Assembly (NCBI GenBank): GCA_016180085.1
Contig: JACPBX010000003.1
Span: 32,001-96,000, forward strand
Origin: Candidatus Woesearchaeota archaeon
GTDB taxonomy: Archaea > Nanobdellota > Nanobdellia > Woesearchaeales > UBA10216
Length of the DNA: 64,000 nt
Direction of reading: 5' to 3'
The position numbers and the translations under genes were made by a program. This document shows, piece after piece, positions 11,817-16,305 of the stretch. Below the pieces are notes generated by a model that had not been told where the DNA came from, made no database searches, and was given only the letters and a program-made list of their open reading frames with translations. Position 1 is the first letter of the stretch, and every line of letters begins with the position of its first letter.

Positions 11817-12497
11817 TCAGCTTTGCCTTGACCTTTCCCTGATTACATCGTAAATCAGGTACACAACTAGGGCAAACAAAGCCCCAACAGCAAACCACAA
11901 GGCTATGTTTGCGGGCTGCTGGACCGTTTGCACAACCACTTCCCTGATTACAGGAGATGCTGTTGCATTCGCAACCCCTTCCGCAGCCTCAGATGCAGCT
12001 TTTGCCGCTTGAGGAACAACTGCTTCAGCAGCCTTTTGCGCAATTTGCTGTGCAGAATATGATGCTGTAAAGCTTCTGCCTATCGCTCCTTGCTGCAGAA
12101 CGCTAAAAAGCTGTATGGCAATCCCTGTAGCAGCCACTACCCCAACAACCGGCAGAATCCTCTTGAGCTTATTAGCTAAGCTCTCAGTAGCAGTGGCTTT
12201 AGGCGCAATAATGATGTACTTGTTGGCGAGGCTGTAATGCAGCACCTCACGTCCTTTCGGTGAGTAGTGGAACTCCTCCGCCTTTACAATTCCGCTCTGC
12301 AGAAGCTGCTTAAGGTTGTAATGCACAGTCGAAAGGGGCATCCTCAGGTCCTTTGCTACCTCTGTTTCTGTCGCGTGCTTCTCCTTTACGGCCAGGTAAT
12401 CAAGGATTCTCCTGCATACGTCGTTGCTGACTATCTGCGCAAGCTGCTTCGCCCTGCTCTCTTCCAGCGAAACCAGCAAAAAATTCTTTGAGGCCAT
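11817..12497 (-). CDS. ArsR-family wHTH transcription regulator with two C-terminal TM helices
   Basis: RRILDYL...TETEVAKDLRMPLSTVHYNLKQLLQSGIV wHTH; hydrophobic ILPVVGVVAATGIAIQLF and IALWFAVGALFALVVYLIY. Confidence 0.88.
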   Translation of the reverse strand: MASKNFLLVSLEESRAKQLAQIVSNDVCRRILDYLAVKEKHATETEVAKDLRMPLSTVHYNLKQLLQSGIVKAEEFHYSPKGREVLHYSLANKYIIIAPKATATESLANKLKRILPVVGVVAATGIAIQLFSVLQQGAIGRSFTASYSAQQIAQKAAEAVVPQAAKAASEAAEGVANATASPVIREVVVQTVQQPANIALWFAVGALFALVVYLIYDVIRERSRQS

Positions 12498-12674
12498 GGC
12501 AGCCAAAGCATTAACAACGCCTATAAATATCCTTTCAAAGCTTCAAGCGCGATTGCAGTTATTAATTTATACTAGCCCGACTAACCAGTGTATGGAGGAA
12601 ATAAGGCTTTCCTCCCGGCAAGGCATGTCGCACTCACTTTTCAGCATAGTGCCTAAATTATTCGTGGAGCCAAA

Positions 12675-13232
12675 ATGAAAACCTCAAAAACAAGCCAAAA
12701 CCGCTTCATAACCCTTCTTCTGACAGGCACTCCAGGCACCGGAAAGACGTGGCTGGCTAAAAAACTCTCACTTTTACTGGATTATGCGTACTTTGATGTT
12801 GGCTTGTTCATGAAGAAGGCTCGCCTTTACAGCAGCTACGACAGGAAAAGGCGCACCTACGTTGTAGACGAGGCAAAACTGGCCAGTTCACTCATAAAAG
12901 TGAGGGAAAAGTCTCTGGAAGCCTTTAAAGCCTCTAAAACAGGCAAAAAGGGCATAATTTTCGACTCTCACATGTCTCACTGCCTGCCTTCCAAGTACTC
13001 TGATTTGTGCATTGTGACAAGCTGCGGCTTAAAAACCCTTCAGCAGCGGCTAAGAAGGAAGGGCTACAGCCAGGCAAAGGTAAGGGAAAACCTGGATGCT
13101 GAGATCTTCGATACGTGCCTTTCCGAGGCGCAGGAAAACGGCCATAAAGTCCTGAACTTTGACAGCACCGCAGCCAAAAATTCTGATGTAAAAGCTCTTG
13201 CAGGCCGCATAAAGAAACTAGTCCGGACTTAG
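12675..13232 (+). CDS. Archaeal Fap7/AK6-type adenylate kinase
   Basis: P-loop LTGTPGTGKT, IIFDSHMSH (hhh-D-S-H), LQQRLRRKGYSQAKVRENLDAEI. Confidence 0.9.
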   Translation: MKTSKTSQNRFITLLLTGTPGTGKTWLAKKLSLLLDYAYFDVGLFMKKARLYSSYDRKRRTYVVDEAKLASSLIKVREKSLEAFKASKTGKKGIIFDSHMSHCLPSKYSDLCIVTSCGLKTLQQRLRRKGYSQAKVRENLDAEIFDTCLSEAQENGHKVLNFDSTAAKNSDVKALAGRIKKLVRT

Positions 13233-13268
13233 TCCGGATTCAGTCCGGACTTAGTTCGTTAACGAACT
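13219..13268. repeat. Array 1: three 11-bp tandem units with palindromic core AGTCCGGACT, plus a 16-bp palindrome
   Basis: tagtccggact tagtccggatt cagtccggact, then agttcgttaacgaact (13253-13268). Confidence 0.9.
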
Positions 13269-13948
13269 TCCTCCAAACTGTTTTTTTCAGCCAAAATTAC
13301 CTTCTTCGAGCCCTTTTCGCTGTGCCTTATCATCCTTTTGTGCTTTAGCTCCCTAAAATAATCGTAGAATGCAGTCCTTCCGCACAGCGCCTTCTCTCCG
13401 ACGATGATTTCCTCAATTTCCCTTGTTGAGTGGGTTTCTTTTGCTGCAATTTCAAGGATTTGTTTCAGTATGTAATCTTTTCGCCTGCTCCTTATAGCCG
13501 TTACGACCTTGTTTTCAAAATAAGTCCGTTTTCGGTCCGGATTTAGTTCGGATTTAGTTCGGATTAAGTCCGGAAACGAACTTGTTTTTGCCTCTTTCAG
13601 CCCCGCTTTTAGCTCTTCCCTAAGGCCTTGTATTGCTGCTTTAAGCTCCGAAGCGTCTGCCTTTAGCCCTGCAATCAGGGTTTTGTGCTCTCCCAGCTCC
13701 CTTTGGGTCTTGGTGTGCCTTTGTTCGTTGAGCAGGTCCTTGTGCTTAAGGAATTTGACCCACGAGCTTAGCAGGGTAATGTCTTGCTTTACCTTTGAGA
13801 ACGCAGCTACGACCTTTCCTTCAATCACCGCAAAAGGGGATATAGAAAGCTCACCGGAAGGCCTTTCCTGCCAACCCACCTGCCGCTCCTCTCGTCTTTT
13901 CTCACTTCTTCTGCTTCTTGCGCCGAAAAGTAGGTCCAGAATTCCCAT
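13259..13948 (-). CDS. Coiled-coil protein with C-terminal winged-helix-like DNA-binding domain
   Basis: Start MGILDLLFG at 13948, 25 bp from a TATA box; heptads HKTLIAGLKADASELKAAIQGLREELK; C-terminus ILKQILEIAAKETHSTREIEEIIVGEKALCGRTAFYDYFRELKHKRMI. Confidence 0.8.
   Translation of the reverse strand: MGILDLLFGARSRRSEKRREERQVGWQERPSGELSISPFAVIEGKVVAAFSKVKQDITLLSSWVKFLKHKDLLNEQRHTKTQRELGEHKTLIAGLKADASELKAAIQGLREELKAGLKEAKTSSFPDLIRTKSELNPDRKRTYFENKVVTAIRSRRKDYILKQILEIAAKETHSTREIEEIIVGEKALCGRTAFYDYFRELKHKRMIRHSEKGSKKVILAEKNSLEEVR
13522..13582. repeat. Array 2: five degenerate 11-bp tandem units inside the wHTH gene
   Basis: aagtccgtttt cggtccggatt tagttcggatt tagttcggatt aagtccggaaa cgaact. 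Confidence 0.85.
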
Positions 13949-13972
13949 GGTTGAGGTTATACTGTAGGAAAC

Positions 13973-13984
13973 GTATTTAAATAC
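13973..13984 (-). promoter_or_regulatory. Archaeal TATA box for the coiled-coil/wHTH gene
   Basis: gtatttaaatac palindrome about 25 bp upstream of ATG 13948. Confidence 0.6.
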
Positions 13985-14129: not shown

Positions 14130-15194
14130 ATGAGGAATCAGATTGCAGCAATAGAGCTTAGGGCGCTTGTGGGTGAGCTTAAGCAGCTTGAAGGCTCTTG
14201 GCTGGACCAGGTTTATGATTTGGAGGCAGCCGAAGCTAAGCCCGGCAAGGCGCTGGTGTTCCAGCTTAACAAAAGTGAGGGTAAAAGGTTTCTTGTCTGC
14301 CTGGCTCCTTCTTCGGTGTTCTTCTCGGTGAACAAGCCTGCGACCGCAGAGAAGCAGAGCGGCTTTTGCAGCACGCTGAGGCATCATCTGGGTAATGCCA
14401 GGTTGGTTTCAATCAGCCAGCCCGGCTCTGAGCGCATCCTTGAGCTTGTTTTCTCGTCGAGAAATCAGCAAAGGCAGCTTAGGCTTGTTATTGAACTTTT
14501 CAGCAAGGGCAACGTAATCCTGGCAGATGAGAAAGGCGTTATTCTGGGCTGTGCTGAGCACCAGGCGTGGAAGGACAGGACGGTAAAGCCGGGCTACACA
14601 TACTCTCTCCCTCCAGCCACTGCTGACTTTGCAGCTATGGCACAGGAGCAATTTGCCAAGGCAGTTTTGTCGTCGGGAAAAGACTCTGTGGTGAAGGCGC
14701 TGGCTGTCGACCTTGGCCTTTCCGGATTTTATGCTGAAGAGCTCTGTTTGGCAGCAGCTATTGCGAAAGACAAAAAGCCGCAGCAGCTGTCCCAGCAGGA
14801 CTTAAGCAGCCTTTATTCGGCATTGCAGCAATTGCTGTCCAGGAAGCAGCCAATAAACGCTGCCTTGGAGGCAAAAGCCGCAGCCCATATTGCTGAAACT
14901 TCCTTGTCGTCTAAAACTGCACCTTACTCAAGGCAGATGAAAGAGCTTGAGATTGCTGTTGAGCGGCAGAAAACAGCTGTTTCTGAGCTGGGTAAGGCTG
15001 CGCAGGAAGCCACCAAAGCAGCCGAGTTCATCTACGAGCACTACATGGAAATCAGGCAAATTCTTGACGACTACAACAGGCTACGCAAGACATTTACTCC
15101 TGAACAGCTTAGGGAGTATTTCAGCAGCAACAAGCTTATCAAATCCATCGACGAGAAAACAGGCCAGATTGCGCTTGAGATTGGCAACGATTAA
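14130..15194 (+). CDS. NFACT/Rqc2 (FbpA-like) family protein, short form
   Basis: IELRALVGELKQLEGSWLDQVY; FCSTLRHHLGNARLVSISQPGSERIL; LVIELFSKGNVILAD; HhH GLSGFYAEELC; coiled-coil C-terminus. Confidence 0.9.
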   Translation: MRNQIAAIELRALVGELKQLEGSWLDQVYDLEAAEAKPGKALVFQLNKSEGKRFLVCLAPSSVFFSVNKPATAEKQSGFCSTLRHHLGNARLVSISQPGSERILELVFSSRNQQRQLRLVIELFSKGNVILADEKGVILGCAEHQAWKDRTVKPGYTYSLPPATADFAAMAQEQFAKAVLSSGKDSVVKALAVDLGLSGFYAEELCLAAAIAKDKKPQQLSQQDLSSLYSALQQLLSRKQPINAALEAKAAAHIAETSLSSKTAPYSRQMKELEIAVERQKTAVSELGKAAQEATKAAEFIYEHYMEIRQILDDYNRLRKTFTPEQLREYFSSNKLIKSIDEKTGQIALEIGND

Positions 15195-15620: not shown

Positions 15621-16187
15621 TCAGTAGTAGAAGTCCTTAAAGGCTGCTTCTTTTGCCGTTTCTTTTCCTCCCTTCGCAGCTGTCGCCTTTGCCTGCATCT
15701 TCCCGAACAGCGAGATAAAGACGTCCTTCTCAACAGCTATTCCCGCTGCCGTCAGCGCATCCGCGAGATTGTAGCCGGAATAATCCGTAGCTGCATCGTA
15801 TTCCAGCAGCTTTTTTGCTGTGTAGCTGCAAAGAAAGCCATCGTTGAGGGCGATTACGATATTTTTGCCTTTGTCGTCGAGAAACTCAGTATTTTCTACT
15901 GCTGTTTTATGGCTGTTACTGTCGTTTATTCCGTGATTTCTCAGCTCCAGCCGAATCAGCTCTGCCGCTATCTCCCTGAAGCTGCTTTTGCCTATCCATT
16001 GCCGTAATGCCTGTTCGCCTGTAAGCCCCAGGAACGCCCCTAAAGCCTCACTTTTTGCCTTTTCAGGCCTTATTAGCCTGCCAAGGTATTTTGACACCTT
16101 CTGGCGAGGGCCTGAGCCTGTCCAGCTGTTTGCAACGAGGTAGGCATACTCCTTTCCGGAAATCCGCTTTATTCTTACGAAAACCAT
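15621..16187 (-). CDS. Hypothetical protein with basic N-terminal beta-hairpin (probable nucleic-acid binding)
   Basis: MVFVRIKRISGKEYAYLVANSWTGSGPRQKVSKYLG; no DDE motif evident. Confidence 0.75.
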   Translation of the reverse strand: MVFVRIKRISGKEYAYLVANSWTGSGPRQKVSKYLGRLIRPEKAKSEALGAFLGLTGEQALRQWIGKSSFREIAAELIRLELRNHGINDSNSHKTAVENTEFLDDKGKNIVIALNDGFLCSYTAKKLLEYDAATDYSGYNLADALTAAGIAVEKDVFISLFGKMQAKATAAKGGKETAKEAAFKDFYY

Positions 16188-16305
16188 TCCAATCAGCCAA
16201 TCCAATTTTAGGCACTAGGTGATATATTAAGCTTGTGGCGTGCCAACTGCAATTGCTGCAGATTTGGCCTTAAAATATCTAAAAGCCGTGTTTCCAGTCT
16301 AAGAA

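Follow-up and report, generated by a model that had tools for sequence, protein, structure and literature searches.

Helically phased repeat arrays in and behind a winged-helix gene of Woesearchaeota: candidate iteron-type sites for the product of that gene

Introduction

Among the described systems closest to the one reported here, StbA/stbS of R388 comprises two sets of five repeats of 9 base pairs (bp) with 2-bp spacers, that is, an 11-bp cycle, which are bound by a PadR-like helix-turn-helix (HTH) protein without need of a nucleoside triphosphatase (NTPase) (bioRxiv 10.1101/2022.04.29.490116). TubR/tubC consists of split direct-repeat blocks bound by a winged-helix protein (PMC6009700). 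The iterons of lambda ori lie inside gene O, the domains of whose product are joined by a flexible linker (PMC6022878). In the RicO/ricS system of Staphylococcus aureus, a DNA-binding domain and an amphipathic helix anchor the chromosome (bioRxiv 10.64898/2026.03.06.710092). Here we describe two arrays of short repeats, phased at 11 bp, within and immediately behind a gene for a 229-residue winged-helix protein (hereafter the host gene and host protein) from a Candidatus Woesearchaeota archaeon. The stretch analyzed, referred to as the window, comprises 64,000 nucleotides (assembly GCA_016180085.1, contig JACPBX010000003.1, positions 32,001 to 96,000).

We assign a probability of roughly 0.5 to the reading that these are split iteron arrays bound by the winged-helix product of the host gene itself, the locus serving as a single chromosomal handle, as an autoregulatory site, or as both.

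The likeness to StbA/stbS lies in a pair of blocks, each with some five direct repeats in an 11-bp cycle, an arrangement that would set bound proteins on one face of the DNA, and in an adjacent motor ATPase not being required. In addition, the DNA-binding domain of StbA is structurally closest to the PadR-family protein Rv3488, which also matches the model of the host protein (Z 9.2). However, stbS lies upstream of stbA at the promoter, with further stbDR operators scattered on the plasmid, whereas the blocks described here are found only in and behind a chromosomal archaeal gene. StbA also lacks a long coiled coil and an N-terminal hydrophobic peptide, and has no detectable sequence relationship to the host protein.

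TubR/tubC (type III) and ParR/parC (type II) share with the locus a centromere-type feature, short direct repeats in split blocks with a spacing near one helical turn, which here is 11-12 bp (exactly 11 bp in the window, for five plus four units). Their binders are small, dimeric and cooperative, whereas here the winged-helix fold is a prediction, and Foldseek lists TubR (3m8f) generically. Moreover, tubC and parC always lie upstream of the binder's gene, overlapping its promoter, with the TubZ or ParM motor gene adjacent, and neither holds here. Lambda ori and gene O offer a different parallel, namely iterons within a coding sequence, two domains joined by a flexible linker, and a DNA element and a peptide specified by the same bases. 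The lambda iterons, however, are 18-bp inverted repeats beside an AT-rich unwinding region of a replication origin, while the units here are direct repeats of 8 bp, with a further block behind the gene.

Noc/NBS and RacA/ram of Bacillus and RicO/ricS each combine a sequence-specific DNA-binding domain with a short membrane-active peptide, and the N-terminus of the host protein might be such a peptide. A first-pass annotation of the window had drawn its analogies from Noc and RacA. These proteins, like RicO, recognize many sites over a chromosomal region, and the analogies do not extend to a protein with one locus per genome, in the genome of the window and in six relatives, and with no ParB-type or other known domain. 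This single-locus distribution refutes a many-site model of the Noc type. Finally, PadR, MarR and ArsR regulators, including AspA of the archaeal plasmid pNOB8, resemble residues 143-229 in fold (PadR Z 8-9.2), but they lack a long N-terminal coiled coil, yield no sequence-profile match, and their Z-scores are tied with that of a cullin WHB domain. By analogy, the locus looks like a variation on the theme of iterons and centromere-binding proteins, one that is chromosomal, archaeal, and placed in and behind the gene of the presumed binder.

Results

Two arrays of one asymmetric DNA word

The arrays and their host gene occupy the following positions.

13524..13582, minus strand: internal array, five CGRAC cores exactly 11 bp apart, head included
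13220..13268, minus strand: downstream array, four CGRAC cores, namely a head and three units 11 bp apart
13259..13948, minus strand: host gene, an open reading frame (ORF) of 229 codons plus a TAA stop, belonging to an unannotated family of proteins of Woesearchaeota and related DPANN archaea

Both arrays were present where the first-pass annotation had placed them, and they are the top-scoring tandem repeats of the window in Tandem Repeats Finder (downstream, 13219-13255, period 11, 3.4 copies, 84% matches, score 60; internal, 13538-13574, period 11, 3.4 copies, 92% matches, score 60). The word RGTYCGGAYT has 8 matches in the window, all within the two arrays; the mean over shuffled sequences is 0.49, and none of 100 shuffles reaches 8.

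The head of the internal array is an inverted repeat, AGTTCG-TTTC-CGGACT (13567-13582), followed by four further CGRAC units, so that its earlier description as five 11-bp units stands. The head of the downstream array is a palindrome, AGTTCG-TTAA-CGAACT (13253-13268), whose TTAA supplies the TAA stop of the host gene (13259-13261). This is the perfect palindrome AGTTCGTTAACGAACT reported earlier, and the internal head AGTCCGGAAACGAACT is a copy of it with three mismatches. A core said to recur three times in the downstream array does so twice exactly as AGTCCGGACT, the middle one being AGTCCGGATT. Both arrays do end in CGAACT on the plus strand. The downstream array takes up the whole 26-bp interval that separates the two convergent stop codons and, as claimed, spans the junction; the convergent gene, encoding a kinase-like protein, ends inside it (stop at 13230-13232), and the last codons of that gene (LVRT, stop) are made of array units.

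A position weight matrix from 166 units of relatives reads T(80%)-C(65-75%)-C-G-R-A-C-Y. Position -2 is T in 80%, and the base that a palindrome would require there is G in only 22-40%. This bias toward T rather than G indicates that the conserved element is an asymmetric direct repeat, TCCGRACY, with the head alone forming an inverted repeat (GTYCG-N4-CGRAC). The description of the arrays as palindromic therefore fits the downstream array of the window but not the family-wide unit. Within the arrays all units point the same way, and GC cores alternate with TAAA-like spacers once per DNA turn. No CGRAC unit occurs in the promoter region at any locus, the blocks lying near positions +376 and +690 of the gene, and no AT-rich stretch flanks either array in the window sequence.

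In the assembly to which the window belongs (998 kb, 83% complete), clusters of at least three CGRAC at 10-13 bp spacing correspond to these two arrays only, and GTYCG-N4-CGRAC heads likewise occur only there. With a looser three-core pattern, the clusters in six related genomes (G001-G004, G007 and G009) sit at the homologous locus, with the exception of one isolated, non-repeat-like match elsewhere in G001 and one in G009. A cluster of restriction-modification or methylation sites (TCCGGA) was considered and rejected, as CGAAC units without CCGG are equally conserved; TCCGGA itself, at 223 copies per Mb genome-wide, is not unusual.

Conservation among relatives

The first-pass annotation had proposed asking whether relatives keep the arrays at the DNA level, and they do. 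A strict pattern, defined as a head plus two units and controlled by the reversed pattern, is found in 23 of 25 genomes and 11 of 12 genera of the GTDB family to which the window belongs, with one or two matches per genome and none for the control. Sixteen family genomes hold exactly two matches on one strand, and in 15 of these 16 the pair lies about 300-330 bp apart on one contig. In an even sample of 151 genomes across the order, the pattern occurs in the genome of the window, in one other of its family and in one outsider, the last being the single occurrence among 149 sampled genomes outside the family (control, 0/151).

Of 24 fetched species-genome loci, all carry arrays with the exception of L023 and L024, which are the most distant. 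Four loci (L007, L008, L016 and L021) are gene fragments, and both arrays are present wherever the fetched locus covers them. Across 22 loci, the same head is followed by 3-6 units at 11-12 bp, with a single 13-bp interval in L022, and the two blocks lie 260-298 bp apart, the downstream one at a variable offset from the stop codon. The downstream array is kept in non-coding DNA of relatives whose proteins share 33-43% identity. In the protein tree, every locus with both arrays falls in one clade (support 99/99), which also contains L062, and the branch lengths of this clade sum to more than one change per site. As divergence on that scale would randomize neutral DNA, the non-coding downstream block is under purifying selection.

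The number of units is stable among close relatives, so that the repeats do not vary in the manner of slippage minisatellites, an explanation we rejected on this ground. We likewise set aside the idea that recombination between the blocks excises the winged-helix segment, as the blocks are short, imperfect and stable in 11 of 12 genera.

Some loci depart from the common layout. L027 keeps the downstream block and L023 only the internal one. L030 encodes a 259-residue family member without an internal array; its 1.6-Mb genome yielded a single cluster of this kind, a 4-unit GTYCGRAC array situated some 430 bp upstream of the gene. Judging from these loci, the DNA word follows the gene family even where the layout differs. 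As a separate observation, the L030 array (L030:896-940) is followed by a TATA-like ATTATAAATA and then by two tandem paralogues of 259 and 402 residues (L030:1369-3631). In the long-form relatives (350-400 residues), the recognition helix is almost identical and the linker is replaced by a Q/P-rich sequence.

Seven records labeled 'uncultured Methanosarcinales' (L003, L011, L013, L018, L044, L045 and L061) carry the Woesearchaeota-type gene, as does L062 ('Candidatus Aminicenantes bacterium'). The four with enough flanking sequence (L003, L011, L013 and L018) share the synteny as well. Since these proteins nest among those of Woesearchaeota in the tree, either mislabeled records or misbinned contigs are probable.

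The DNA word is conserved over the peptide

The internal array encodes linker residues 123-142 (SSFPDLIRTKSELNPDRKRT), and these codons coincide exactly with the non-helical linker of a structural model described below. The first-pass annotation had argued that selection acts on the DNA and not on the peptide, and the codon data bear this out. Where residues are identical, synonymous-codon identity is 0.86-0.93 over codons 121-140 versus 0.50-0.76 elsewhere, and even the best-conserved segment of the winged helix reaches only 0.63-0.76; at the residue level, identity within the internal array is just 0.54-0.72. The residue swaps observed are single-base changes at degenerate positions of the unit, namely E/G (GAA/GGA), D/N (GAC/AAC) and L/P (CTx/CCx). 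In L013 and L015, an S-to-Y change (TCC to TAC) is matched by the same C-to-A change in both arrays of each genome. The peptide RTKS is invariant in an alignment of 32 homologues, the variants RTKY and RTES being confined to three fetched loci (L006, L013 and L015). By these comparisons, the internal array is an overlapping nucleic-acid constraint on the linker coding sequence, a conclusion to which the conservation of the downstream, non-coding array adds.

The two arrays of one genome also co-vary (r = 0.69 and 0.64 for unit variants), and in L009 the internal and downstream arrays share 27 identical bases. At L004 (L004:3368-3740), the internal and downstream arrays agree in 38 of 39 bases. 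The head spacer there reads TTTC versus TTAA in the sister locus L005, with the usual stop lost and the ORF three codons longer (FRT), and the downstream array of L004 looks like the product of a recent gene conversion from the internal one. The invariant CGRAC core is paralleled by a nearly invariant third helix of the winged helix, CGRTAFYDY. The sequences compared show that selection acts on the arrays at the nucleic-acid level, that they go with this gene family, and that each genome has them at a single locus. The proposal of a self-contained module of protein plus site is upheld to the extent that the two are inherited together, once per genome.

The predicted protein

The family layout of the host protein is an N-terminal peptide, a coiled coil, a linker and a winged helix, with the following segments in the window.

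13922..13948, minus strand: N-terminal peptide MGILDLLFG, codons 1-9; short, hydrophobic and conserved, with a basic stretch after it
13583..13837, minus strand: long helix, residues 38-122; AlphaFold2 predicted local distance difference test (pLDDT) about 89-97
13289..13522, minus strand: winged helix-turn-helix, residues 143-220; AlphaFold2 pLDDT about 76-92 (80-92 in most blocks)

The start codon (13946-13948) was set by the alignment of 32 homologues, in which M1 is invariant and G2 nearly so, and the protein does begin MGILDLLFG as first proposed. The gene is single-copy in its own genome. A protein search returned 49 close matches and 148 clusters at 50% identity (E<=1e-3).

Sequence-based annotation yields little. 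Pfam and NCBIfam contain no family matching the host protein at E<=0.1 or 0.01, with the sole exception of a spurious DUF3698 below its cut-off; neither PadR, MarR or ArsR profiles (Pfam-A and NCBIfam) nor a ParB-type domain (Pfam and NCBIfam) was detected. ESM Atlas neighbors score only 0.78-0.86 and are leads rather than matches, with no family named. A sequence-profile search of the PDB returned coiled-coil noise only, and a search of open-access papers found neither the protein family nor the arrays described.

An AlphaFold2 model built with the homologue alignment (mean pLDDT 77) agrees with the architecture proposed at the outset, comprising an N-terminal helix (residues 3-24, low confidence), a long helix, a linker and a winged helix. 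Residues 123-142 are non-helical, with pLDDT below 50 over 123-136. The winged-helix elements are predicted as helices 143-169, 175-184 and 191-203 and strands 207-212 and 215-220, the third helix carrying the nearly invariant motif LCGRTAFYDY. The 85-residue helix 38-122 is presumed from the model to be a coiled-coil dimerization rod; prediction of a homodimer (two copies, alignment A1) gave a median score of 0.35 against a mark of 0.42, which bears on dimerization neither way.

With the full model, Foldseek finds nothing at E<=1e-3 and lists generic winged helices only, including TubR (3m8f) and RTP (1f4k). VIA-align of the C-terminal domain ranks a cullin WHB domain first (8caf_E, Z 9.6), followed by PadR-family Rv3488 (5zhc, Z 9.2), other PadR-like and assorted winged-helix chains (Z 8-8.7), MarR chains (Z 7.3-7.9) and SmtB (Z 7.5). 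For a predicted domain of this kind, this is a generic winged-helix result, such Z-scores being common among winged helices.

In the N-terminal peptide, M1, G2 and F8 are invariant or nearly so among the 32 homologues. This hydrophobic/basic peptide resembles membrane-targeting peptides like the E. coli MinD tail GFLKRLFGG, and we regard MGILDLLFG as a candidate membrane- or partner-binding element.

Neighboring genes and genome context

The remaining features near the arrays are as follows.

13974..13983, minus strand: TATA-like box TATTTAAATA, read from the sequence, its center about 31 nt upstream of the ATG
12675..13232, plus strand: kinase-like gene, AAA_18 'putative kinase' (PRK03839-like), the convergent neighbor
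14130-15194, plus strand: RqcH/NFACT gene, 354 residues, matching positions 2-229 of the 645-position archaeal RqcH model
11817-12506, minus strand: ArsR/HTH_20-type gene, two genes away from the arrays, for a winged-helix protein with hydrophobic segments at its C-terminus

The distance of the TATA-like box from the ATG implies a leaderless or near-leaderless transcript. The box is also a perfect palindrome within the 181-bp divergent intergenic region between the host gene and the RqcH-like gene, and could in principle serve both directions.

Across the family, a syntenic block is formed by a divergent RqcH N-terminal fragment, the host gene, the convergent AAA_18 putative kinase and the ArsR-type gene. 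The kinase-like gene is the convergent neighbor at nearly all loci and is best taken as context. No NFACT-R or C-terminal part was detected in the 354-residue RqcH/NFACT gene, and an equally short divergent RqcH neighbor (about 355-385 residues) at nearly all related loci indicates a short form conserved in the lineage and not a local truncation. The ArsR/HTH_20-type gene is syntenic at most related loci and apparently encodes a membrane-anchored DNA-binding protein. A 194-residue protein (MVFVRIKRISGKEYAYLV..., 15621-16205, minus strand), without a match in Pfam or NCBIfam, is syntenic upstream of the RqcH-like gene at most loci. Elsewhere, the genome of the window contains two FtsZ genes; its 83%-complete assembly holds no AAA_31 ParA-type match, and one CbiA-family match over the cut-off lies on another contig.

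Discussion

The conservation data suggest that each array is a cis-acting site of the iteron type, made up of one dimer-type inverted repeat and 3-5 direct TCCGRACY units, one per DNA turn. The arrays are probably docking sites of the winged-helix protein whose gene hosts them. Binding in a cooperative manner, the protein would occupy one face of each block and would generate a split nucleoprotein complex across about 360 bp, bracketing the DNA that encodes the winged-helix domain. The internal block could sit inside the gene because a disordered interdomain linker tolerates residues dictated by the DNA word. The bound locus may then act as a centromere-like or anchoring complex linked to the membrane or a division structure, with the hydrophobic/basic N-terminal peptide on its long coiled coil supplying the second contact; a transcriptional roadblock on the gene itself would be a likely side effect.

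We take a single chromosomal 'handle' as the most likely role of such a complex, given the sole site per genome and the conserved N-terminal peptide on a coiled coil, and given that regulation alone would bring no gain to a DNA-binding protein with no specific target but its own gene. Even so, a handle or segregation role is speculative and we consider it doubtful, and we advance tethering or segregation as a hypothesis. In its fullest form, a one-gene, motor-free archaeal chromosome anchoring module in which two iteron blocks and the N-terminal peptide tie a single locus to the membrane or division apparatus of the tiny DPANN cells, the proposal is tentative at best.

Several observations weigh against self-bound iterons or against a handle built on them. 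We infer the identity of the array binder from its association with the arrays. The arrays lie away from the promoter, unlike those of nearly all known centromere-binding or autoregulatory systems. The long-form relatives have no arrays in or near the gene; genome-wide scans find none in G006 and one isolated, non-repeat-like match in G008, and alternative repeat words within 1.5 kb on either side of the array-free long-form genes were likewise not found. The arrays are thus not needed for the basic function of the family. No partner NTPase (ParA, ParM or TubZ) is adjacent, and the flanking genes, for a kinase and an N-terminal RqcH fragment, appear related to the ribosome. The host protein has a short N-terminal peptide of weak amphipathicity (hydrophobic moment 0.27, against 0.65-0.67 in L009 and L010). 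All four combinations of strand and array fold as RNA better than shuffles (z -3.7 to -6.9).

The first-pass annotation had also suggested relating the motif to cdc6/orc and GC skew, and here no connection emerged: orc1/cdc6 lies on another contig in 5 of 5 genomes checked, and the cumulative GC skew of the 147-kb contig does not turn at the locus. Given the fragmented assemblies, both results are uninformative on proximity to the origin rather than negative. The locus is not visibly linked to an origin of the lambda O type, with no adjacent AT-rich unwinding element and orc1/cdc6 on other contigs in those five genomes.

Two other explanations are serious rivals, namely pure autoregulation by roadblock and binding by another factor. 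Under the first, which we judge unlikely, the arrays are feedback operators at which the protein halts RNA polymerase, both inside the host gene and at its end; the real job of the protein lies elsewhere, for example in the coiled coil and the N-terminus, and the roadblock shields the convergent kinase gene from read-through. Confinement of the arrays to the inside and 3' end of the transcription unit fits this proposal, as does the polar barrier that units pointing the same way would form. The long-form relatives, which lack arrays, show in-gene arrays to be dispensable for the family, and StbA, TubR and ParR all double as autorepressors (10.1101/2022.04.29.490116, PMC6009700). However, the promoter, the simplest place for feedback, bears no unit at any locus, and a block at the internal array would yield truncated transcripts lacking a stop codon. 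The upstream placement of the L030 array, outside the gene, is also at odds with a roadblock, and two blocks of 4-6 phased sites far exceed what an operator needs.

Under the second, which strikes us as improbable, a different factor binds the arrays and the host gene merely offers a tolerant linker and an intergenic slot. Candidates for this factor are the product of the ArsR/HTH_20 neighbor, a nucleoid protein or histone reading the 11-bp GC/AT alternation, or a recombinase. The hydrophobic C-terminal segments of the ArsR-type protein (11817-12506) and the synteny of its gene at most loci make it a candidate, but that gene is tied to the arrays solely through synteny of the whole block. Alternation of GC core and TAAA-like spacer once per turn favors bending, but the base-specific invariance of CGRAC exceeds the needs of bendability. 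Finally, the long-form relatives keep the recognition helix with no arrays, as this proposal would allow, yet the array of L030 again adjoins a family member, and does so in a different gene context.

An RNA-level element seems quite improbable. It would consist of hairpins in the mRNA, an antisense transcript or a read-through transcript of the kinase gene, acting in termination, 3'-end stability or control of translation. Beyond the fold advantage over shuffles given above, 18 of 19 internal arrays and 15 of 20 downstream ones fold more stably as the antisense strand, which in the internal array reaches -33.2 kcal/mol through G-U pairs, and 65 of 72 pair positions in the head repeat are compatible with antisense-strand pairing. 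Nevertheless, the mean fold z by strand is nearly equal (-3.2 vs -4.1, and -4.65 vs -4.65), so the antisense bias in stability is largely compositional, and the classes of head mismatch are near the expectation for independently degenerate half-sites. In L013 and L015, folding of the internal array is lost (z -0.4 and +0.9), yet the CGRAC phasing is kept. The family-wide unit, an asymmetric direct repeat, is not self-complementary, and phasing at 11-12 nt has no obvious rationale in RNA.

That the arrays have no function of their own, the peptide RTKSE... being what is selected and the downstream copy a duplication relic under gene conversion or a slippage-prone minisatellite, is highly improbable: RTKS invariance, the apparently fresh conversion at L004 with its three added codons, and the resemblance of the downstream array, read in frame, to the linker peptide (RTKSGLNPD) speak for it, but the downstream array persists in 11 of 12 genera despite in-frame stops and variable offsets, radical residue swaps fall exactly at degenerate DNA positions and synonymous sites stay fixed, close relatives agree in unit number within a family range of 3-6, and the long-form relatives swap the linker for Q/P-rich sequence.

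Chromosome organization and segregation in DPANN archaea are essentially unknown, and the genomes of these archaea lack most known partition genes. The locus offers a concrete pair, a protein of 229 residues and two DNA blocks of 50-60 bp, kept across a GTDB family and present once per genome; both parts can be synthesized for work in vitro, making culture of the organism unnecessary. Irrespective of function, it is an example of an overlapping code in which the residues of a disordered linker are set by a DNA word, and as such it bears on how 'conserved linear motifs' and scans of non-synonymous against synonymous substitution (dN/dS) are read. If the arrays are mere autoregulatory operators, the locus is a modest curiosity. 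If the anchoring module is real, it would constitute a minimal centromere-plus-kinetochore in a lineage without recognizable ParA or SegA and, as a by-product, a natural case of a protein linker dictated by the code of a DNA-binding site.

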